This document shows positions 1-13,999 of a DNA stretch of 13,999 nt, piece after piece. Below the pieces are notes generated by a model. It was given only the letters and a program-made list of their open reading frames with translations. It was not told the origin of the DNA and made no database searches. Position numbers and translations under genes: made by a program. Where the stretch lies: positions 1 to 13,999 of the forward strand of contig CBFDTJ010000038.1 in the NCBI GenBank assembly GCA_965612865.1, read 5' to 3'. The stretch comes from an uncultured bacterium. GTDB lineage: Bacteria; Caldisericota; Caldisericia; B22-G15. Each line of letters starts with the position of its first letter. Position 1 is the stretch's first letter.

Positions 1-59
1 AAGACGGCATACGAGATCATGCCTAGTCTCGTGGGCGCGGAGATGTGTATAAGAGACAG
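1..59 (+). other. Illumina Nextera P7-side adapter: P7 tail, i7 index, Read-2 primer site and Tn5 mosaic end (technical artefact)
   Basis: AAGACGGCATACGAGAT (1-17, P7), CATGCCTA (18-25, index position; matches Nextera N706 as I recall it), GTCTCGTGGGCgCGG (26-40, one T>G mismatch at 37), AGATGTGTATAAGAGACAG (41-59, 19-bp mosaic end). Confidence 0.99.
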
Positions 60-1428: not shown

Positions 1429-2100
1429 TTATATTTCTTTAATATCCTCCTCACCCTCTATCTCTCTAACTTTACTTTCTCCCCCATGCATCTCAACATA
1501 AAATATCTTGTCTCCTGCCTCCATAAGAATTCTGTCATGGGTTATAAGAATTATTTGCCTTTTCAGTACCTCGCTCACTTTTCTCAAGAACTCCACCATC
1601 GCTCTTTTGCTTCTCTCATCAAGGAATGTAAGAGGTTCATCAAGAATTAGGGGCCCATCAAGCTTCGGATTTACACTTTTCTCAAGAACACTGATTCTTA
1701 AAGCCAGGGATATAATCTGGGATACACTTCCACCGTGTATATCTACAGGGTTCCCCTCAAAAATTAGATTTTCGCTTAAGTTCTTTACAACAAACCTTGC
1801 TGTATTTCTATTCCTTTTATCTTCCAGCTCTATTCTAAAGCTAAGATCTTTATATATTGGTTCAAGTGCTTTATTTACCAGTCTCTCAATACCACTCATT
1901 GTCTCCCGTCTCAACTTTTCATATGCTAATTCAAGTACTCTCTTTGCTTGGGTGTATATCCTTTTCCTATTCTGTAAATCTTTTAATAATTCTTCCCTAA
2001 TATTTATTTCCTTTTCTATTCTTTGCTTTTCACCTAATCGTTTTTCTACCTCCCTTATTCTTTTAAAAACTGCCTCATTGATCTTTTCTATTGAGTTCAT
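1429..2100 (-). CDS. Rad50/SbcC (SMC-like ABC ATPase) C-terminal half: short coiled coil plus signature, Walker B, D-loop and H-loop
   Basis: About 80 aa of N-terminal coiled coil, then DIHGGSVSQIISLALR (variant ABC signature), LILDEPLTFLD (Walker B/D-loop) and ILITHD (H-loop); no Walker A. ATG at 2100 is preferred because SD AAGGAG (2113-2108) lies 7 nt upstream. Confidence 0.92.
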   Translation of the reverse strand: MNSIEKINEAVFKRIREVEKRLGEKQRIEKEINIREELLKDLQNRKRIYTQAKRVLELAYEKLRRETMSGIERLVNKALEPIYKDLSFRIELEDKRNRNTARFVVKNLSENLIFEGNPVDIHGGSVSQIISLALRISVLEKSVNPKLDGPLILDEPLTFLDERSKRAMVEFLRKVSEVLKRQIILITHDRILMEAGDKIFYVEMHGGESKVREIEGEEDIKEI

Positions 2101-2350
2101 TATCAATCTCCTTCAGAGACTCCTCTATCATCATTTTTTTCTTTACTATCTCCTTCTCAATTCTTTCTATCTCTCTATCCAGTTCTTCTATACTATTGAT
2201 ATTAAAATTCTCCTTGAGCTCCTTTATAATCTCGTCCTTTGCATTTTTCAAGGCATTCAAAGTTCCAGTTATCTCCTGCCTTTTTTCAACATACTTTTTA
2301 ATCCTTTTGTTTAGTTCATCAAGTTCCTTTATAATCTTTTCAATATCCAT
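2075..2350 (-). CDS. Small (91 aa) all-coiled-coil protein between the two Rad50 halves
   Basis: K/E/I/L-rich heptad pattern with a short break (NFNINS); SD GGAGGT (2360-2355) 4 nt before ATG 2350; starts 2 nt after the upstream stop and overlaps the downstream start by 26 nt. Confidence 0.85.
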   Translation of the reverse strand: MDIEKIIKELDELNKRIKKYVEKRQEITGTLNALKNAKDEIIKELKENFNINSIEELDREIERIEKEIVKKKMMIEESLKEIDNELNRKDQ

Positions 2351-2352
2351 AT

Positions 2353-3522
2353 TTACCTCCACATCCTCTTTATGTTTTTCTTCACTTCCTCCATCAACTT
2401 ATTATCCACTTCTCTTAGACACACCGGGCAAACTCCCTCTCTTCTTATAACGGAAACATACTTTTCTATAAGCTTATTTATGGTAGTTTCTATTTCCCTT
2501 TTTTCTTCTTCCTCCTTTTTCTTCCTTTCAATGATATTTTTTAATTCTAATTTTTTGTTTTTAAAAAAGATATAGCGTTCCTTTAAACCATTTATCTTAT
2601 CTACAGTCTCTTCTTTAACAATATCTTTATTTAACACTTTATATAACTTCTCAAAATTTTTAATCTTATATTCATTGTCGGTATAGTTACGCTTAATCCT
2701 TTTAAATTCATGCAGTCTGAGCCTCTCATTCTGTACCTCACTCATAATCTCATTTATTTTCTCCACCTTATTCAGTGCTTTAAATTGATCTTCAAGAAAT
2801 TTCAATTTTTTATCTATATCTTCTAATCTCTCCTTCAGATTTAAGAGTCTCTCTTTTTTAGTGTAAAGATTCTTCAAGTTCTCTGCTTCACCCTTCAAAA
2901 CTAACAGTTTGTCTCTCTTTTCATCAATTCCTTTAAATTCTTCGAGTGAAGTTTTGAGGTTTTCTATCTCTTCTAAGTTCTCTTTCTCTTTCCTCTGAAT
3001 TTTAATTATGTCAGTTGCAAGTGATTTAACTGCTTCGTCTATTATATGTCCTCCAGAGATTGTAAGAAGGGTGGTATGAACAATAGAAGGGGTCTCATCC
3101 AATAGATACAGAGAATCCATCTGCTCTTTTATCTGAGGTGAAAGTCTTCTCCCATGTTCTATAGGAAGGATTCTGATCTTTAAAGCTTTTTTAATATCCT
3201 CTGGAACATCCCTTCCAAAACTTGAATATTCTTTTCTGTCTCCCTCTTTTGTTATAAGGATATATTTGTTTGTACCCTTACCCCTCTCTCTAATAACAGT
3301 AGTTCCGTCACTTAATGTAATAGTTACTCTTGCAATGCTTTTTCCTTTTCTTATAAAAGCATCTCCCTGTGGTTCATTAAAAAATACCCAGAGTATAGCT
3401 CTTATTATTGCAGTCTTCCCTCTATTTCCTCTTCCAAGAAAAACATTTATATTAGGTGAAAGCTCAATAGATGTAAATGGATGAGATTGGAAGTTCTCTA
3501 AAGTAATTCTTCTAATCCACAT
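2353..3522 (-). CDS. Rad50/SbcC N-terminal half: Walker A head lobe, long coiled coil and CxxC zinc hook
   Basis: IRRITLENFQSH start motif, Walker A GRGNRGKT, Q-loop-like IKEQ, about 200 aa of coiled coil, CPVC at aa 365-368 (nt 2430-2419), then a stop after 21 more residues; no Walker B. Confidence 0.93.
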   Translation of the reverse strand: MWIRRITLENFQSHPFTSIELSPNINVFLGRGNRGKTAIIRAILWVFFNEPQGDAFIRKGKSIARVTITLSDGTTVIRERGKGTNKYILITKEGDRKEYSSFGRDVPEDIKKALKIRILPIEHGRRLSPQIKEQMDSLYLLDETPSIVHTTLLTISGGHIIDEAVKSLATDIIKIQRKEKENLEEIENLKTSLEEFKGIDEKRDKLLVLKGEAENLKNLYTKKERLLNLKERLEDIDKKLKFLEDQFKALNKVEKINEIMSEVQNERLRLHEFKRIKRNYTDNEYKIKNFEKLYKVLNKDIVKEETVDKINGLKERYIFFKNKKLELKNIIERKKKEEEEKREIETTINKLIEKYVSVIRREGVCPVCLREVDNKLMEEVKKNIKRMWR

Positions 3523-5287
3523 CTTTTACCTTCCAGATTGTAAAAATGCCATTGTCTACCTCTTCAATCTTTCCATTGTTTGAGAGCCTTGAAAGAATGT
3601 TTATAAGCTCATCCTCACCAGAGAGCATAAGTCCTCGTCTTTCTAACTCTTTAAGAGCAATGTGAAGCATATTCTCTTCAATCAAGCCTTTTTCTCTTAT
3701 ATAGCTTAATACAACTTCATCCTCTTTTTCTTTTTCTTTTTTTAATTCCTCAAAAGGATTCTCTGTATAGGGAGTTTTTGTAAACGAAAGTCTTATTCTA
3801 ACCGGCAAACTTCTTTGAAATATCGCAGAGGATACAAAACAGTCTCCAGACTTAAGATAAGGCAACCTTTCTATGTCACTTTTCGAAAGATCCGTTTCTT
3901 TCTTTATCGTTAAAAGATCAGTTTCTCTAACGGTTCTAAAGATAAATTTAGTGTTAAGTTGAGCTGTTATGGTATCATCGAGAAGGGATGGTCTCTGAGT
4001 GGCAAGAATAAGAAATATACCATATTTTCTTCCCTCTTGTGAGATAAGTTTGATTACCCTTTTTGATGGAATGGTAAAGGTGTATTCCTTTGGAGCAAAA
4101 TTGTGTGCTTCATCTATAACAACAAAGAAAGGTGGAAAGTATTCCTCAATTTGTCCTTTTTTTAGACCATCCTTATATATTCTTCTCTTATCCACCAATT
4201 TTCTAAGTAAAAATGACACAAAAACCTTTAATGTATCGAGGTTTCCCCAGACCACTGCAATTTTTTTATCCTTCATCCAGCTTATAATCTCCCTGTCTCC
4301 TTTTCCAAAAATTCCAAGCCTTATCAGGTAATTTAGCTTTCTTAGTACTGCTCTTGCGCTTGAAGGATTCACATTTGTCTTAATCTCCCCCTCCGCTTTT
4401 TTCTCACCTAAACTTCTTAGATTTTCTCTAAAATTTGATAAGTTTTTTTCTTCCCCCATCATACTGTATGCAACGTATATTGCTTCCATCTGGGGAGGTT
4501 CAATTTCACTTATAGTAGAAAACAACGACTCCACCTCACCTTCAGATAACTCAGAAAAATCTATACCAATATCCTCTCCCACAGTGAACACTCTTACAGT
4601 TTCTTTTATATTTTTGTAAACGCCCTTAACGCTTTCATCTACTATATCAAAGATCATTTCAAAATGTGGATCAAATACAATAGCTGGATAACCTTTCTTA
4701 GCCATCTCTTCGAGAATTACTCTTAAAGAGAAGGATTTACCGGAACCACTACCGCCAAATATACCAATGTGTGGATACTCTGCCATTTCTCTGACACCGA
4801 ATATAAATGGGATCTCTCTTTGATCTCTTTTCCTTCCTTCTTCAAGAATTTCCACAAGGTCTTTAAATTCACCGGGTAGAGAGTTATAAAATCTATCTGT
4901 ATTTTTAATAACTCCCACCACAAGACCATCGGGTTTTAGCTTAAAGATATGCTTTATCTCAGAAAAGTTTGCTCTTCTTACTCTACTTCCTACTTTTAAA
5001 GGATACGGTGGTTCATCTAAGAACCTGAGTTTTCCTATGTTTATTTCTTCCTCTTCAATTTTAAAACCAAGGGTTTTTAAGTGAGAGATTATTCTCTCCT
5101 CCCTCTCGTTTCCACTTCCAGGAAGAGGAAGGAAGGAATTTATACTGTAAGACTCAACGACCTCTGCAAGATACTCTTTCCCATCACCTTTCACAAAGAA
5201 AAAATCATGATAGGAAAATTTTTCCTCTCTTGATGCTACAAAAACCTCAAATTGATTGGATTCACCTACAACTAATATATCGCTCAT
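3512..5287 (-). CDS. herA: HerA-family (FtsK-HerA) DNA translocase/helicase ATPase
   Basis: N-terminal beta-rich HAS-barrel-like region, HIGIFGGSGSGKS (Walker A), VFDPHFE, VVIDEAHNF (Walker B), EGRKYG (arginine finger), LATQRP; ATGA overlap with the nurA stop at 5284-5287. Confidence 0.95.
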   Translation of the reverse strand: MSDILVVGESNQFEVFVASREEKFSYHDFFFVKGDGKEYLAEVVESYSINSFLPLPGSGNEREERIISHLKTLGFKIEEEEINIGKLRFLDEPPYPLKVGSRVRRANFSEIKHIFKLKPDGLVVGVIKNTDRFYNSLPGEFKDLVEILEEGRKRDQREIPFIFGVREMAEYPHIGIFGGSGSGKSFSLRVILEEMAKKGYPAIVFDPHFEMIFDIVDESVKGVYKNIKETVRVFTVGEDIGIDFSELSEGEVESLFSTISEIEPPQMEAIYVAYSMMGEEKNLSNFRENLRSLGEKKAEGEIKTNVNPSSARAVLRKLNYLIRLGIFGKGDREIISWMKDKKIAVVWGNLDTLKVFVSFLLRKLVDKRRIYKDGLKKGQIEEYFPPFFVVIDEAHNFAPKEYTFTIPSKRVIKLISQEGRKYGIFLILATQRPSLLDDTITAQLNTKFIFRTVRETDLLTIKKETDLSKSDIERLPYLKSGDCFVSSAIFQRSLPVRIRLSFTKTPYTENPFEELKKEKEKEDEVVLSYIREKGLIEENMLHIALKELERRGLMLSGEDELINILSRLSNNGKIEEVDNGIFTIWKVKDVD

Positions 5288-6246
5288 CTCAGTCTCCTTT
5301 TTGGTGTGAAGAATGTTTCAAATATTCTCTCATCAATAAATTGTTTCCCCATAAGCCGTATTTCCTTCTCCGTTAGTTTAACCTCTCTATCAACCATATC
5401 CAGAAACATAGGAATCCCTCTCCCTCTCTTTTCTGTTATGAACATTATAAAAGATGCAATCTCTCTATATCTATCTTTAAAATCAGACGGAATGTCAAAA
5501 GCAATAGGAATAGGATCATTAGAACTCCTCAAATACACCATTGAGAAACCATGTTTTTTCTTTGGATATGGAAGAAAAATCATCTCTCCTATTGACAGTT
5601 TTCCTGTAAGTAATTCCTTGTCAGATAAATCTAAATTTGAAAGCTCCCTGCCATATATATCCTCTATTACACCAACGATGGTAATGTCTTTAGATTTGCA
5701 CCTATTCAGAAGATCATCAAATTCCTTGCTAACCTGTTTTTGGAAATGTGTTAGGGAACCATCCATAATTAAGATGTCACCCTCTTTTAAGAAATCAACT
5801 GAGTCTATTGCCACAAGAACCTCTAATTTTGCCATTCTTTCATATCTTATCCTCTCCTCTGCGTATGTTAAATCTGAAAGTAGATACTCTTCTCTCCTTT
5901 TTATCTCATTTAAGATTCTCTCAAAATAGGTTCTATCCTCTAGGAGAAGGGGAGAAAAAAGGTCATACATGAATATTTTTTTTCCACTAAAGGGATTTAC
6001 AGCAAGTGAACGGAATATATAAAAAAAGTTTGGGTAGTTACCACCCATTTTCATAAGGGATCCATCAATGAAGAAGGGAGAAAAGTTAAATTCACTTTTT
6101 TCTTTCACAGTTTCCTTTGATTTCAAGACATCCAGAACAACGCTATCTCTTAAAAGAATACTCTCTTTAAGTTTTTCATTTAAACCACTGAATTTCCTTT
6201 TAAAATCATCAAGATTTTTTATAAATTCTTTCCCTTGCCTCTTCAT
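5284..6246 (-). CDS. nurA: NurA-family 5'-3' nuclease
   Basis: FFIDGS, LEV and ILIMDGSL acidic motifs, C-terminal RGIPMFLDMVD (counterpart of the NurA GYPxxLxxAH motif); translationally coupled to herA. Confidence 0.88.
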   Translation of the reverse strand: MKRQGKEFIKNLDDFKRKFSGLNEKLKESILLRDSVVLDVLKSKETVKEKSEFNFSPFFIDGSLMKMGGNYPNFFYIFRSLAVNPFSGKKIFMYDLFSPLLLEDRTYFERILNEIKRREEYLLSDLTYAEERIRYERMAKLEVLVAIDSVDFLKEGDILIMDGSLTHFQKQVSKEFDDLLNRCKSKDITIVGVIEDIYGRELSNLDLSDKELLTGKLSIGEMIFLPYPKKKHGFSMVYLRSSNDPIPIAFDIPSDFKDRYREIASFIMFITEKRGRGIPMFLDMVDREVKLTEKEIRLMGKQFIDERIFETFFTPKRRLR

Positions 6247-7165
6247 ATCTCCTCAACGCCTCTCTTCTTACCACCTCATCCACGTCTTCATTTTTAGAAA
6301 TCATCTCTATTATTTTTTCTGGATCAAAACTTGCATTCTCTCTCTCTGTAAGAGAGGAAAAAAACTCTCCAAAGAGAACTCTATCAATATCATTTAACTT
6401 CTTACTCTCAATTTCTTCCCTTTTTTTTACTCTTTTAAGTTTTATTAATTTTGGTTCCACTTTTGTATTTTCAATGGTTAACAATACGACCTGTGGAATT
6501 CTATCAAATTGAGTTATACTATCCCTGGCAACACTTCCTGGAGATATAAATATTTTTCCATTCACTCTTCTTACTCCATATCCATCATGATAGTGACCTA
6601 CAAGTATTATATCTGCTTCGGTAACACCTGCCACTTCTTCCAGTGAAAGACACGAAAAATTTGCCTTAAATGGTAGAACATAGGAATGTACCATTTCTAT
6701 TGCAATAAGATTCATGTTTCTCTTCTCTATCCTTAGAAAATCAGGATTCTCATCAACACCATCTCTATAATTAACCCCATGTATCTCAATCTCTGTATCA
6801 ACTGGAGGAAAAACTTCACCATCCTTTAGAAACTTAACAACACCAGCCTCCTCGAGTATTTTTGCCGACTTTCTGTTATAAGTTTCAGGATTCCTCCCTT
6901 CTATGTCATGATTTCCCAAAATACTAATTATAGGTCTTGCATTAAATTTTTTTAATGTTTGAATAAGTTTAATTACAACTTCGTCACTGGGAGAAGGACG
7001 AGAGAACCAATCTCCACCAAATAAAACATAGTCCACATTATTAGAATTAGCTATTTCTCCTATCTCCTCAATTTTTTCAAGAACTGACATAAGAAAATTA
7101 TCCTTCCTGGATGAAAGCTCTTTGCTTTGAAGATGAGTATCCGTGAAATACAGGATTTTTCTCAT
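6209..7165 (-). CDS. Mre11/SbcD-family calcineurin-like metallophosphoesterase nuclease
   Basis: All five phosphoesterase motifs: DTH, GGD, GNHD, MVH, GHYH; SPGS after motif V; helical C-terminus as expected for a Rad50-binding domain. ATG 7165 (MRKILYFTDTH) is preferred over GTG 7183. Confidence 0.93.
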   Translation of the reverse strand: MRKILYFTDTHLQSKELSSRKDNFLMSVLEKIEEIGEIANSNNVDYVLFGGDWFSRPSPSDEVVIKLIQTLKKFNARPIISILGNHDIEGRNPETYNRKSAKILEEAGVVKFLKDGEVFPPVDTEIEIHGVNYRDGVDENPDFLRIEKRNMNLIAIEMVHSYVLPFKANFSCLSLEEVAGVTEADIILVGHYHDGYGVRRVNGKIFISPGSVARDSITQFDRIPQVVLLTIENTKVEPKLIKLKRVKKREEIESKKLNDIDRVLFGEFFSSLTERENASFDPEKIIEMISKNEDVDEVVRREALRRYEEARERIYKKS

Positions 7166-7216
7166 ATTTTTATTATACCTCACAAAAATTGTATAATTCT
7201 CTTTGAGGTGTTAAAA
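7166..7216. promoter_or_regulatory. Compact divergent promoter region (mre11 operon / nnr)
   Basis: 51-bp gap containing TATAAT on the minus strand (7177-7172), TATAAT on the plus strand (7192-7197) and SD GAGGTG (7205-7210) for the plus-strand gene. No good -35 is visible for either direction. Confidence 0.6.
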
Positions 7217-8788
7217 ATGAGAGTAGCAACAGTAGAAGAAATGAGAAATCTTGACAGAGAAGCAGTTGAAAGGTTTGGAATTCCTGAAGAAATGTTGATG
7301 GAAAATGCAGGAAACAGTGTTTATTATGTAATTTTAAAGGAGGTAGGGGTAAAGAACAAAAAATTTATTGTAGTATCTGGCACAGGAAACAATGGTGGTG
7401 ATGGATTTGTTGTGGCAAGAAAACTCTATTCTCAAGGTGGTCATGTAAAGGTCTTTGTATTTGGGAATATAGAAAAAATTAAGGGCGCATCTAAAAGAAA
7501 TCTTGAGATACTCAAGGGTATGAATTTGGACATTTCTTTTAACCAGGAAATTGAAGTTTTTAAAGATGCAGTTAGGAATTCTGATGTAATAGTGGATGCG
7601 CTTTTGGGAACAGGGATATCAAGAAAGATAACAGGTATCCTAAGGGATGTAATAGATATTATAAATAAAAGCGGAAAGGCCGTCGTTAGTGTGGATATTC
7701 CTTCTGGTGTCAATGGAGATACTGGAGAGATTATGGGAACATCTGTTAAAGCAAATTATACAGTAACTTTTGGTCTTCCAAAAGTTGGAAATATCTTTTA
7801 TCCAGGTTTTTATTTTAATGGAAAAGTCTTCTTATCACATATTTCCTTTCCTCCAGAACTTTACGAGAAAGAAACAATAAAGCTCTTTATAAATGAAATA
7901 CTTCTTCCGCCCAAAAGAAAGGAAGATGGTCATAAAGGGGATTTTGGAGATACTTTATTTATTGCCGGTTCGAAACTTTATTTTGGGGCTCCAGTTTTCT
8001 CCTCACTTTCTTTCTTGAAATCAGGGGGAGGATATTCAAGACTCGCTACAGTAAAATCTATAATTAACTCTGTCTCTCAACAAGCAAGCGAGGTTGTATT
8101 TATACCTCTTGATGAAACTGAGGAAGGTTCTTTATCTATAAAAAATCTGGATAAACTTATTAATATCTCCAAAAAGGTTGACTTTGTAGTGATTGGTCCA
8201 GGACTCTCCTTAAATCAGGAAACCCAGGAACTTGTGAGAAAGTTTGTAAAAGCGGTTGAAAAACCAATTCTTATTGATGGTGATGGATTGACTGCCATCT
8301 CCAAAAACTTAGAAATTTTATTGGAGAGAAAATGCCCTGTAATCTTAACTCCGCATCCAGGGGAAATGAGTAAACTTGTTTCTCTTCCAAAGGATGAAAT
8401 ATTGAAAGATAGGATTAAGATTTTAAGGGATTTTACCAAAAAATTTAACTCAATTATAGTTTTAAAAGGTGCCCATTCCTTAATAAGTTATCCAGACGGA
8501 AACATCTTTATAAATGTTTCTGGAAATTCTGGAATGGCAACACCTGGATCTGGAGATGTTCTCTCGGGAATTATTCCTGCAATGTATGGGATTGGATTTA
8601 ATATAGAGGAAGCTGTAAGAATGGGTGTTTTTGTTCATGGATTTTCTGGTGATCTTGCAAGAGAAACTATTGGAGAGGACGGAATTACTGCAAGAGATAT
8701 AATGAATCATATTCCTGAAGCAATGAAAAGATTAAGAGATGATTTTTTATCTGTAAAGGAGAAATACAAACTTATAAATTTCATTTAA
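7217..8788 (+). CDS. nnr: Bifunctional NAD(P)H-hydrate epimerase / ADP-dependent dehydratase (NnrE-NnrD, YjeF), 523 aa
   Basis: YjeF_N motifs LMENAG, GTGNNGGDG, DALLGTG, SVDIPSG; dehydratase motifs GHKGDFG, GPGL, DGDGL, TPHPGE, LKGA, GMATPGSGDVLSG. Start reassigned to ATG 7217, which follows SD GAGGTG. Confidence 0.97.
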   Translation: MRVATVEEMRNLDREAVERFGIPEEMLMENAGNSVYYVILKEVGVKNKKFIVVSGTGNNGGDGFVVARKLYSQGGHVKVFVFGNIEKIKGASKRNLEILKGMNLDISFNQEIEVFKDAVRNSDVIVDALLGTGISRKITGILRDVIDIINKSGKAVVSVDIPSGVNGDTGEIMGTSVKANYTVTFGLPKVGNIFYPGFYFNGKVFLSHISFPPELYEKETIKLFINEILLPPKRKEDGHKGDFGDTLFIAGSKLYFGAPVFSSLSFLKSGGGYSRLATVKSIINSVSQQASEVVFIPLDETEEGSLSIKNLDKLINISKKVDFVVIGPGLSLNQETQELVRKFVKAVEKPILIDGDGLTAISKNLEILLERKCPVILTPHPGEMSKLVSLPKDEILKDRIKILRDFTKKFNSIIVLKGAHSLISYPDGNIFINVSGNSGMATPGSGDVLSGIIPAMYGIGFNIEEAVRMGVFVHGFSGDLARETIGEDGITARDIMNHIPEAMKRLRDDFLSVKEKYKLINFI

Positions 8789-8899: not shown

Positions 8900-8927
8900 A
8901 TTATAACAAATTCCAGCACCTATTCAA
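8900..8927 (-). promoter_or_regulatory. Extended -10 promoter pointing into the 8820-8895 element
   Basis: Minus strand TGtTATAAT (8908-8900), with TTGAAT (8927-8922) 16 nt upstream of the -10 hexamer; predicted +1 near G at 8893. Confidence 0.6.
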
Positions 8928-11900
8928 ATCTAAATCCTTTTTTAAAAAGTCTAATACAAGCTTCAACTACCTTAGGATCATACAGTATTCCTTTGTTCTT
9001 CTTTATCTCCTCAAGAGCTTTATCTATACTAAAGGCAGGCCTGTAAGGCCTATTGGATGTCATAGCTTCAAGAGTATCAGCAACTCTAATTATCCTGGCT
9101 TCCAAAAGAATTTCATCTCCTTTAAGTCCCTCTGGATAACCAGAACCATCAATATTCTCGTGATGTTCAAGGACTATTTGAGCTACAAAGTGCAGAAATT
9201 CAATGTTCTTTAAGAGATCGTATCCAACCTTTGGATGCATTTTTATAAATTCCCATTCTATTCTTGATAGATTCCCCGGTTTATGTAGAATTTCATTGGG
9301 AATAACGATCTTTCCTATATCATGAACAAGAGAGGCAACCCTTATAACTTCAATTTTTTCCTTACTCAACCTCATTTCCTTGGCAATCTCTGTGGCAATT
9401 TTTGTCACTCTCTTTTGATGTCCAGCAGTGTAAGGGTCCTTTGTTTCAACAATTCTTCCAAGGATGGCTATTGTATCATTAAATGCCCTTTTTAATCTCT
9501 CATGACTTTTCTTAAGCTCTTTTTCTTTCTCCTCTTTTAGTTTCTCAAGATATTTCTCCTTGGTAACATCTCTTGCACTTCCAACAGTTCCAATAAGATT
9601 TCCATTCTCATCCCAGAGTGGAGCTTTATACACATCAAGGTGGAGGTATTTTCCCTTTACATAACCAAACTCATCAAACCTTCCCGGTTTCTTTGTCTTA
9701 AGAACAACTTCATCTGAATTAACACAGAGTTCTCCAAAAGTGTGCCATTTTGGATTATCAGGATGACTCTTTCTCTCCCTATCTGCAAAGTAGAGGTCAG
9801 TTTTCCCAATGGGCTCCTCTGTACTCTTCGCATTCAAAAGTTTCTCACATATAGATTTGTTTACAAATATGTATCTACCTTCCAAATCCTTAGCCCATAT
9901 CATATCTTGAACATTGTCTGCCAAAAGTCTGAACAATCTATACATCTCTCTATATCTCTTTTCCTCTTTTTTAAGTTCTTCAAAAGCCCTTGCCCTCTCA
10001 ATAATTACACTACACATGTTCACAAATGGTATAAGTTTCTCAACGTCTTCCTTTGAGAATTGATTTATCCTATCCCCATCAATTTTCAAAAAACCTATAA
10101 CTTTATCTTTAACTATTATTGGAATGGATATATGTGATTTGATCCACTCAGTTTCCTTGTATGTTATCCAGTCAGGATGTCTTGATGTATCAGAAATAAT
10201 AAGGGGTTTCTTTGTTTCAATAACTTTCTCATCAGTTGGATACATATCTATAGGTATTCTTAGATTTGAAACGAATTTTTCTATACCATATTTTTCATAA
10301 CCTGTTGAAGCAATAACAACTATTTCATCATCTTCAATCAAAGATACATTGCCTGATACAAAAGGAACAAGTCTCTTTGCCTGAATAAGCATTTCATTGA
10401 GTAGTTCTTTCAAATCTGTTTTGGTTGTAAGTTTTAAAGCTGCATCCTTTAATGTATCTGAGAATGTTTTCTCTTCCTTAAGCTCCTTCAATAACCTCTC
10501 CCTTTCAATCTCCTCTTCTTTCTTTGATGATATATCCTCTATAGTTGCAACTTCAAATAGAAAGTTTCCTTTTTCATCAAAGGCTGGAGATACTATAACC
10601 TTTGCCCAGAATACACTACCATCTTTTCTTATAAGGCGTTTCTCACTAACAAAGGTTTTAAATGTCTTTCCATCCTTAACCTCTTTAAGGTATTTTTGGT
10701 ATAAAAGGGTATCTCTCTTAAGATCTTCTGGATGAGTAATATCCATCCATGTCTTCTTTCCAACAACCTCCTCTCTCTTGTATCCAAGCATTCTCTCCCA
10801 TTGAGGATTAACATCAAGAAACACTCCCCTCTTATCTGTTAAATTTATTCCCAAAGGTGTTGCCTCAAAAAGGTTCCTGAATTTTTTAAAACTAAATTTT
10901 AACTCTTCTTCTAACCTCTTCTTATCGGTAATATCCTCTATCATCAGTATGAGATATTCAACTTCAGTTTCTTCATATGAATTTAATATGGGTGAAATGT
11001 AAACATTTAAAAATATCTTCTCTCCTTTTCTCTCTATGTATGTTTCACATTTAAGATTTTCATTATTCTTCAATTTGCTAAAATCAATGGAATGAGAATC
11101 AATCTTATTACATGGAAATACATTAGTTATATTTTTATTTATCAGATTCTCCCTCTTAAAATCTGTAATCTTGAGGAATCTTTGGTTTACATTCAATATT
11201 TCTCCATCTTTATCTATTAAGGCAATTCCAAGGGGAGAATTTTCAAAGATTGTCCTATATCTTACCTCTCCCCTCATCAATCTATCCTTCTCCTCAATCC
11301 ACCTCTCCATGAGTTTCTCATTGAAGTATCTAATGGTGTTGGGACCGAGTTCTTTTGCTGTATACATGGCTATATCTGCCTTCTTTAAGAGAGTATCTAA
11401 ATCTTCAGCATCATCGGGGAATATAGTTACACCAACATTCACTCCCACTCTAAACTCCATCGTTTCATATTTTATAGGTTCGTTGAAAGAATCTATGATT
11501 CTCAACACAATTCTATTAAGATCACCATTTTTCTTAATATCTGTTAATAAAATTACAAACTCATCTCCCCCAAGCCTAAATATAATGTCAGATTTTCTAA
11601 ATATATCTGTGAGTTTTCTTGCCACTTCCTTCAACAGGATGTCTCCAACATCATGACCAAATCTATCATTTATATCTTTAAAGTTGTATAAATCTATAAG
11701 AAGCAGGGCTAATTTTTTCCTCTCCCTCTTTGCCCTTGCAGATTCTAAATCAAACATGTATTTCAATAGATTTCTGTTTGCAAGACCTGTGAGAGTATCA
11801 TGAGTAGCTTTATACTTTATATCCTCCTCCATCCTTTTTCTCTCTGATATGTCCTGATATATAACCACCACACCTTTCGTCTTAACCCCCACTTTCACAG

Positions 11901-12231
11901 GACTTGCTGAGATACTCACATGAATTAATTTTCCATCCTTTCTCTTTCTTACAGTTTCATAGGTTAAATAGGGTTCTTTAAGAGATTTCTTTGTGAGTCT
12001 CCTTCCCTCTTCAATAAGATAGTCTGGATGGAGGAATCCTTCATCTATATTCTTTCCCTTAATCTCTTCAAGGGTATAACCAAACAACTCTGTAAATTTT
12101 GGGTTTATATCTATAATTCTACCTTTATCATCTAAATACACCACTGCTTCAGGAAGACTGTAGAAAAGGGTTTTAAACTTCTCCTCACTTTCCCTCTTTT
12201 GATTAACATTTGAATTAGATTTATCTTTCAT
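8920..12231 (-). CDS. Multi-sensor c-di-GMP enzyme: PAS - GGDEF - PAS - PAS - GAF - PAS - HD-GYP (1103 aa)
   Basis: HDTLTGLANR, FKDINDRFGHDVGD, RKSD-IIFRL-GGDEF (GGDEF at 11571-11557); PAS/PAC ends QDIS, EDIT, EDIS, RDVT; GAF SHISIPIIVKDKVIGFL...F; HD-GYP motifs KDPYTAGH, HDIGK, HHENIDGSGYP, RPYR. No transmembrane segment evident. Confidence 0.95.
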   Translation of the reverse strand: MKDKSNSNVNQKRESEEKFKTLFYSLPEAVVYLDDKGRIIDINPKFTELFGYTLEEIKGKNIDEGFLHPDYLIEEGRRLTKKSLKEPYLTYETVRKRKDGKLIHVSISASPVKVGVKTKGVVVIYQDISERKRMEEDIKYKATHDTLTGLANRNLLKYMFDLESARAKRERKKLALLLIDLYNFKDINDRFGHDVGDILLKEVARKLTDIFRKSDIIFRLGGDEFVILLTDIKKNGDLNRIVLRIIDSFNEPIKYETMEFRVGVNVGVTIFPDDAEDLDTLLKKADIAMYTAKELGPNTIRYFNEKLMERWIEEKDRLMRGEVRYRTIFENSPLGIALIDKDGEILNVNQRFLKITDFKRENLINKNITNVFPCNKIDSHSIDFSKLKNNENLKCETYIERKGEKIFLNVYISPILNSYEETEVEYLILMIEDITDKKRLEEELKFSFKKFRNLFEATPLGINLTDKRGVFLDVNPQWERMLGYKREEVVGKKTWMDITHPEDLKRDTLLYQKYLKEVKDGKTFKTFVSEKRLIRKDGSVFWAKVIVSPAFDEKGNFLFEVATIEDISSKKEEEIERERLLKELKEEKTFSDTLKDAALKLTTKTDLKELLNEMLIQAKRLVPFVSGNVSLIEDDEIVVIASTGYEKYGIEKFVSNLRIPIDMYPTDEKVIETKKPLIISDTSRHPDWITYKETEWIKSHISIPIIVKDKVIGFLKIDGDRINQFSKEDVEKLIPFVNMCSVIIERARAFEELKKEEKRYREMYRLFRLLADNVQDMIWAKDLEGRYIFVNKSICEKLLNAKSTEEPIGKTDLYFADRERKSHPDNPKWHTFGELCVNSDEVVLKTKKPGRFDEFGYVKGKYLHLDVYKAPLWDENGNLIGTVGSARDVTKEKYLEKLKEEKEKELKKSHERLKRAFNDTIAILGRIVETKDPYTAGHQKRVTKIATEIAKEMRLSKEKIEVIRVASLVHDIGKIVIPNEILHKPGNLSRIEWEFIKMHPKVGYDLLKNIEFLHFVAQIVLEHHENIDGSGYPEGLKGDEILLEARIIRVADTLEAMTSNRPYRPAFSIDKALEEIKKNKGILYDPKVVEACIRLFKKGFRFE

Positions 12232-13928: not shown

Positions 13929-13999
13929 CTGTCTCTTATACACATCTGACGCTGCCGACGAAGGCTTAGGTGTAGATCTCGGTGGTCGCCGTATCATTA
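13929..13999 (-). other. Illumina Nextera P5-side adapter: mosaic end, Read-1 primer site, i5 index and P5 (technical artefact)
   Basis: CTGTCTCTTATACACATCT (13929-13947), GACGCTGCCGACGA (13948-13961), AGGCTTAG (13962-13969; reverse complement CTAAGCCT, matches index 508 as I recall it), GTGTAGATCTCGGTGGTCGCCGTATCATT (13970-13998). Confidence 0.99.

Follow-up and report, generated by a model that had tools for sequence, protein, structure and literature searches.

The window analyzed here, a whole 14-kb contig (13,999 nucleotides; CBFDTJ010000038.1) of an 88% complete genome of an uncultured bacterium of the Caldisericota, encodes the ATPase Rad50/SbcC as three separate proteins, hereafter N, M, and C. 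This split, modular-arm Rad50 is a real and widespread variant of a known machine. Judging from the sequences, the machine is probably a DNA-end processor of the Mre11-Rad50/SbcCD type, with a Rad50 that would be assembled from three gene products in unequal numbers, and its surprising part is a modular, probably tiled arm.

Three open reading frames (ORFs) in two frames of the minus strand encode N (389 amino acids, aa), M (91 aa), and C (222 aa), so that the single chain of Rad50/SbcC is replaced by three genes (Table 1). N matches the NCBIfam Rad50 profile with an E-value of 2.9e-16, a match too weak to pass the cut-off of the profile, and the whole-protein cut-offs of NCBIfam are far out of reach for the pieces; the top Foldseek match of N is the Rad50 ATPase 1f2u, and the C-half profile matches Rad50 C-lobe structures. 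The motifs of ATP binding and hydrolysis (Walker A, Q-loop, Walker B, and H-loop) are all found, split across N and C. The Q-loop glutamine Q134 of N is invariant in 66 sequences, and D153 and E154 of Walker B are invariant in 121 C-halves, with H187 of the H-loop present in at least 90% and invariant in 66. The long helix of N starts at aa 158 and leads to a CPVC motif, which we interpret as a CxxC zinc hook at the arm tip, with zinc binding predicted. The hook profile matches the Rad50 hook structures 1l8d and 6zff, and CP is present at the hook in 347 of 362 N-halves, a set chosen for CxxC from which about 8 hook-less N-halves were dropped. As the first-pass annotation of this DNA had described, Walker A and the CPVC hook with a 21-aa tail lie on one gene, Walker B and the H-loop lie on a separate one, and both downstream genes are closely coupled, each having its own Shine-Dalgarno (SD) sequence and ATG. 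The SD sequences are GGAGGT and AAGGAG, and SD and ATG overlap the preceding gene in both cases. The putative function of the split complex, by analogy with the Rad50 family, is ATP-dependent DNA-end binding and nuclease activation.

Two further details of the annotation need qualification. The signature assigned to C is at its expected place but in a degenerate form, IHGGSV, the canonical ABC (ATP-binding cassette) signature being LSGGE/Q. At the same place relatives have mostly RGGG (145) or SGGG (39), with GG kept and the rest differing (the search pattern settles on the first GG it meets, which is the wrong one in some phages). The D-loop aspartate is present in the window (PLTFLD), and relatives carry serine in 223, aspartate in 13, and lysine in 9 of 245 sequences; a D-loop serine together with an RGGG signature is typical of the relatives, and the family of the window keeps the aspartate. 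The ATPase cycle of the relatives may differ from that of canonical Rad50. M, described as pure coiled coil, is indeed helical but not a straight helix: its monomer model (predicted local distance difference test score, pLDDT, 90; predicted template modelling score, pTM, 0.47) consists of a helix at 3-49, a turn, and a helix at 54-90. The turn is conserved, and the first helix is 47 residues long.

The three-way split is real. N and C are in the same frame, but more than 10 stops lie between them in that frame, so that no one indel can rejoin them. Assembly error had to be tested because sequencing adapter and index sequence lies at both ends of the window (1-59 and ~13940-13999); an adapter end is carried by 80 of 111 contigs. 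We used Logan contigs of four public runs (X1, X2, X3, and X5), X1 possibly being the source sample, to test the junctions for which read mapping had been proposed with the annotation. X1 has a single gap-free piece over positions 1400-2844, X3 and X5 cross each junction with separate gap-free pieces, and X2 crosses the N/M junction only; the contigs of all 4 runs are free of indels at the junctions. M was found in 8 of 41 genomes searched, namely that of the window and 7 of the 8 others in its family, and in 0 of 32 from four other families. Across the 7 family genomes M is 42-91% identical and N ends in MWR; five of them have complete genes of 389, 92, and 223 aa, and two are cut by contig ends, which affects N. 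The break points are identical in relatives at 42-60% identity. In a search of 93 genomes of the phylum, the C-half was strong only in the 8 genomes and at one phage-like locus. This locus, in a genome of another family of the same phylum (L020, G081:C180), holds a phage-like copy of the module with a nuclease, an 86-aa M-like ORF, an unrelated ORF, and a 208-aa C-half. The claim that these are three genuine genes, and neither frameshift decay nor an assembly error, is borne out by the gap-free contigs in 4 runs and by the same split in 7 of 8 family genomes.

The three-piece split is widespread in Bacillota and phages. A C-half search returned 469 representatives at an E-value of 1e-10 or better, and about 133 of the best 150 matches, counted by eye, are 195-245 aa long (longest, 368). 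In species genomes, pattern scans located 493 places with a C-half and 259 with an N-half, and there were at least 540 places in viral and 537 in metagenome contigs, with 80 loci retained from each scan set. Named records with the split form are nearly all Bacillota, and the carriers include the cultured and harmless Halalkalibacterium halodurans, Thermoactinomyces, and Acetivibrio; the family of the window forms its own well-supported branch outside Bacillota in an unrooted tree. The neighborhood search suggested earlier thus recovered the same three genes in the family, in Bacillota, and in phages. Where the N-half is complete, M is present at 183 of the 184 cellular loci and at 143 of the 178 viral ones; absence from homologous loci, which would have spoken against the annotation, is not the rule. 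A published account of a naturally split SbcC/Rad50 did not appear in a literature search on titles and abstract openings, though the split may have been mentioned before.

The pieces also occur apart. In phages vB_BboS-125, phBC6A51, and 0305phi8-36, unrelated genes are interposed among the three, and the C-half stands alone in 13 of 80 loci; in 5 of 5 tested genomes with a lone C, N and M are together on another contig. We therefore regard the pieces as independent genes acting in trans, with M going with N. In Acetivibrio-like Clostridia (L072, L074, L087, L091, L093, L100, L103, L106, L108, L110, L114, L116, L123, and L126-L130), the lone C lies between what we take to be folD-like and rny-like genes, and N and M precede a presumably rimO-like gene elsewhere. 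At L080, a 324-aa ORF (7674-8648) directly follows N and no separate M was called; this possible natural M-C fusion would fit a shared strand of M and C. Fused N+C was absent from 400 loci screened, a biased sample as the queries were split forms, and full-length Rad50 was not found with the queries used in the window's genome, which is incomplete. In four bacterial genomes (L111, L164, L168, and L191) the N-half ends before the hook and M is intact, which may reflect a frameshift, a sequencing error, or a fourth piece. These broken N-halves and the adapter on the contig are what speaks for an assembly artefact, a pseudogene, or recoding into one chain; set against the gap-free junctions, the shared break points, the interposed phage genes, the separate location of C, and the lack of fusions in that biased screen, such an explanation has a negligible chance of being right.

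The arm of N is built of a 47-residue sequence repeat, the number of which varies between species. We measured arm length from a head anchor (the conserved D162) to the hook in 362 distinct complete N-halves (184 cellular and 178 viral); the last batch of 240 loci was reduced by 56 duplicates, 22 cut, and 4 hook-less loci, four broken or cut ones had been dropped earlier, and the cellular set includes metagenome contigs of unchecked origin. Cellular values are 203, 248-251, 293-298, 344-345, 391, and 438, and 178 of 184 lie within 2 residues of 203+47k, compared with ~11% expected by chance. The 58 metagenome sequences fetched later are all on the rungs except one at 257, and a separate phage lineage has its own ladder of 147, 194, and 241. 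Measured from Walker A to the hook, 71 N-halves give 335, 381-384, 428-431, 473-478, and 572, and the autocorrelation of the arm peaks at lag 47 (0.73) and lag 94 (0.53). The outgoing helix thus reaches ~140 to 438 residues past the anchor in 47-residue steps, the family of the window having the shortest cellular arm, and a tree of 126 bacterial sequences requires at least 18 changes in the number of units. As the arm lengthens, M remains at ~77-93 aa and the C helix keeps its length; M pairs that are 88% identical accompany arms differing by one unit. Across the family the N chain ends 2-45 residues past the hook, with a tail of <15 aa in 164 of 178 viral N-halves. The model of N (pTM 0.40) breaks the helix at 195-198 and 298-304 and holds a 99-residue unbroken helix across a unit border.

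M most likely supplies the missing return strand of this arm. We consider it likely, on the strength of the sequence comparisons below, that the C helix covers about the first 62 residues and that M binds once per repeat, which would amount to ~3 copies here and 5 in most Bacillota; taking off 62 residues leaves 141 residues of arm (3 x 47) in the window and 235 (5 x 47) in most Bacillota. In such a complex, N and C would reconstitute the ABC head, the C helix would run antiparallel to the N helix over the first ~62 residues of the latter, and helix 1 of M, as a relative of the C helix, would lie on each 47-residue unit in the same register. The return strand would be a stack of M copies, with n = (anchor-to-hook - 62)/47, helix 2 of M would probably serve as a third helix over a neighbor, and the CPxC at the end of N would join two protomers through zinc. 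The complex would act on DNA ends with SbcD and here also with HerA-NurA; from family knowledge, ATP-dependent end recognition and nicking would be followed by the passing of ends to HerA-NurA for resection. The earlier view of M as the missing middle of the arm survives as far as M is a conserved partner and most likely part of the return strand, but not as one copy with matched lengths.

Covariation between C and N served as a positive control and places the C helix antiparallel on the first ~62 residues past the anchor, the top pairs being salt bridges (R22:D+36, E9:K+55, and K16:E+48; antiparallel sums 57-65). Helix 1 of M aligns with the start of the C-half at an hhalign probability of 86% (reversed control, 16%). 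The C register transferred to M predicts 22-30 of 47 per unit, and the best antiparallel register observed is 26; the strongest M covariation pair, R30:position 43 (z 6.3), sits in the hook-most unit. In the phage lineage (46 sequences), the top diagonals at 109, 157, and 208, for which 110, 157, and 204 were predicted, rank 1 of 47 (tied), and 1 of 150 permutations was as high. Covariation did not place helix 2 of M. The charge of M is anticorrelated with that of the arm (rho -0.50, 326 sequences), also in phylogenetic contrasts (r -0.31, 276 contrasts, 0 of 3000 sign flips) and with the hook-proximal 47 residues (r -0.18, p 0.010), and shows no anticorrelation with the N head (+0.12) or the C-covered part (-0.05). 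Translation signals favor M in cells: its SD beats that of C in 146 of 156 cellular loci (45 of 49 clusters) and that of N in 104 versus 47 (39 of 49 clusters), with median pairing of -10.6 for M and of -7.4 and -6.4 for the other two genes. That M stays beside N when C moves away further supports tiling.

Several observations weigh against a tiled arm. An earlier, shallower comparison of the M and C alignments reached only 16%, and the fold search matched the monomer model of M to long helices and not to a tight hairpin. In the Bacillota-type set the covariation of M is weak, with 26 of 116 control windows as high or higher, and a parallel register scores above the antiparallel one (2.14 versus 1.68). 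Two of the three phage peaks were known before the prediction was fixed, which leaves the third as the one predicted in advance. When long arms are taken by themselves, the charges of the first and last segments are not significantly related to that of M (r -0.08 and -0.12), and the charges of arm segments correlate among themselves. Viral loci show a weak SD bias (56 for M versus 46 for C), the bias in the window is small (computed pairing, M -9.9, C -9.2, and N -6.8), and codon bias, taken as C-ending Phe, Tyr, Ile, and Asn codons, does not differ between M (0.312) and N (0.309). Finally, a survey of Smc arms reports an arm length that is itself periodic at ~91 aa for geometric reasons, 47 being half of it (PMC5344682).

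The parallel register, the failed segment-wise charge tests in long arms, and the periodicity of Smc arm function at 91 aa, near the 99-aa superhelical period (PMC5344682), could be accommodated if one M per protomer lay beside the C helix and the N helices of a dimer paired in parallel from there to the hook, with each step of 47 residues, or half a superhelical turn, holding hook and heads in phase. We consider this main rival unlikely: the strongest M pair is in the hook-most unit, the charge anticorrelation extends to the residues beside the hook, the three phage peaks are ~48 apart, and the SD bias in cells goes to M. A single M also leaves unexplained why its helix 1 is one unit long.

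The first-pass annotation had proposed a 1:1:1 heterotrimer in which tail, M, and C helix form a continuous return strand as long as the outgoing helix. In the family of the window alone, ~15 + 84 + 75 residues come within ~30 of the 205-residue outgoing helix, and the three genes are tightly coupled. The sum is nevertheless ~25-30 short here and fails in relatives, where the same M and C go with arms of 250-438 residues and tails are <15 aa in 164 of 178 viral sequences, and covariation places the C helix on only ~62 residues. In long arms a single M is not enough to close the gap, M and C being constant while the arm grows over its range of ~140-438 residues, and the 1:1:1 model is accordingly very improbable. 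We give just as little credence to M being a chaperone or regulator (an assembly factor, or an inhibitor released on DNA binding) of an N arm that zigzags in 47-residue folds. Short helical units with breaks such as those in the low-pTM model of N could bundle, and a strong SD would suit an abundant helper, but the same model keeps its 99-residue helix over a unit border, and M is similar to the C helix, with the same predicted register.

Compared with known systems, the split Rad50 shows likenesses in two directions. With Mre11-Rad50/SbcCD (the Rad50 of P. furiosus and M. jannaschii, E. coli SbcCD, and phage T4 gp46/47) the split form shares a bipartite ABC head, a long helix with a CxxC hook at its distal end, and an adjoining Mre11/SbcD, archaeal Rad50 being its best sequence and fold match. 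In known Rad50 a single chain turns back at the hook (PMC7752040), and the word "split" occurs 0 times in the passages searched there. The split form differs in its three genes, its chain end 2-45 residues after the hook, its 47-residue units, and its xGG(G/S/T) signature, and most relatives lack the D-loop aspartate. As in the archaeal herA-nurA-mre11-rad50 operon, the window and its family have the four functions side by side, the differences being the bacterial host and the split Rad50. The lengths of prokaryotic Smc arms also cluster at intervals, but with a period of ~91 aa and both strands on one chain, and the survey dropped sequences with strands differing by >25%, which places split forms outside it (PMC5344682).

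The other likeness is to exonuclease VII, XseA4-XseB24, in which, according to PMC10835039, six XseB hairpins bind each XseA helix, XseA length varies in XseB-site steps, and the authors themselves liken the enzyme to SbcCD. Both have a long helix dimerized at its tip and, if M is tiled, several copies of a small two-helix subunit; the long helix varies in steps (XseA segments are ~44 aa) and the small subunit is constant. Exonuclease VII differs in having no ATPase, no zinc hook, two XseB per segment, and no clear sequence repeat in XseA. XseB was not among the 7 Pfam matches of the window protein or the 25 listed of 217 families, nor among the 60 PDB sequence matches or 50 fold matches listed for M (best Z 6.4). 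What M matched in Pfam, in PDB sequences, by fold, and in the Atlas was limited to generic coiled coils and clusters without a name, with no Pfam family over the cut-off. We read the likeness to exonuclease VII as an architectural analogy and not as kinship. We also considered MADS and Lamassu anti-phage ATPases, as PADLOC matched mad3 to C (E 4e-17) and LmuB to N, and rejected them: each match is only half an ATPase, and the neighbors in the window are HerA, NurA, and SbcD and not the partners of these systems. MAD3 is described in the abstract of PMC13662399 as an OLD-type ATPase with the MAD4 nuclease.

A linked SbcD accompanies the split Rad50 at 174 of the 184 cellular loci and 150 of the 178 viral ones, and it is present in 111 of 111 cellular loci with 4.7 kb of upstream sequence. 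HerA is not part of the core because it is within reach at only 28 of these 111 cellular loci and 0 of 105 viral ones. HerA and NurA are encoded with the nuclease and the ATPase in the window, L132-L134, L291, and L293, a minority of the wider family. Promoter and terminator scans of the window gave no more matches than shuffled sequence, and the terminator scan showed nothing terminator-like past the end of the operon. The ATG of the nuclease gene is preceded, at a distance of 6 nt, by a TATAAT that the promoter scan did not call; a nearly leaderless transcript is possible. An 11/12 sigma-70 match (1390-1418, -) lies just beyond the stop of the C-half, ahead of a nucleobase permease gene. The permease ORF (23-1291) and the last ORF of the window run into adapter sequence, which gives them false C-termini. 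A gene at 7127-8788 (+), presumably carbohydrate-kinase/epimerase-like of the NnrE/NnrD type, is divergent from the nuclease gene (7165, -), with ~50 bp between the likely starts, and the 1103-aa protein encoded at 8920-12231 (-) has what we take to be PAS, GGDEF, GAF, and HD-GYP domains.

Table 1. Features of the split Rad50 locus in the window
Feature	Position	Strand	Basis
Mre11/SbcD nuclease, 318 aa (alternative GTG start 7183), opens the gene run	6209..7165	-	Pfam Metallophos E 1.6e-14; NCBIfam Mre11 E 3.1e-14
NurA nuclease, 320 aa	5284..6246	-	Pfam NurA E 8.8e-13
HerA ATPase, 591 aa, overlaps N start	3512..5287	-	Pfam DUF87 E 3.8e-21; NCBIfam HerA
N, Rad50/SbcC N-half, 389 aa (ATPase lobe I, outgoing helix, zinc hook, 21-aa tail)	2353..3522	-	Pfam AAA_23 E 1.9e-16
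Walker A GRGNRGKT, N aa 30-37	3412..3435	-	sequence; G30, G35, K36 invariant (66 sequences)
Head-proximal helix, N aa ~158-224, predicted antiparallel partner of C-half helix	2851..3051	-	covariation; charge contrast r -0.31
47-residue arm unit 1, N aa 203-249	2776..2916	-	unit frame from hook and family ladder
47-residue arm unit 2, N aa 250-296, starts LNK	2635..2775	-	unit frame
47-residue arm unit 3, N aa 297-343, starts LNK; model breaks helix at 298-304	2494..2634	-	unit frame
CPVC zinc-hook motif, N aa 365-368	2419..2430	-	C365, P366, C368 invariant (66 sequences)
SD GGAGGT of M, overlaps N stop codon, 4 nt before M ATG	2355..2360	-	sequence
M, 91-aa helix-turn-helix protein, putative multi-copy arm subunit	2075..2350	-	structure model; conserved family
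SD AAGGAG of C-half, within M, 7 nt before C ATG	2105..2110	-	sequence
C, Rad50/SbcC C-half, 222 aa (~75-aa return helix, signature, Walker B, D-loop, H-loop)	1429..2097	-	NCBIfam Rad50 E 2.1e-14
Degenerate signature IHGGSV of C	1723-1740	-	position of motif
Walker B LILDE, C aa 150	1636-1650	-	position of motif
H-loop LITHD, C aa 184	1534-1548	-	position of motif

In models of Rad50 and SMC proteins, ATPase heads and hook are coupled by a continuous coiled coil within one molecule. A natural family in which the return strand is dropped, and in which arm length differs by exact modules between close relatives, offers a ready series for studying what arm length and continuity do, a question left open for Rad50 in PMC5344682. 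It also offers a role for the unnamed proteins of 80-90 aa that hundreds of genomes encode, and the split explains why such genes are annotated as fragments. It seems reasonably likely from the sequence evidence that bacteria and phages contain a class of Mre11-Rad50 without a continuous return strand, in which a repeat helix would be tiled by ~2 to 8 small subunits from the C-half helix, in 47-residue (~7 nm) modules. If so, arm length would be set by duplicating one repeat, the supply of the small subunit could control arm assembly, stiffness, and signaling between head and hook, and an SMC-family arm would be built like exonuclease VII.

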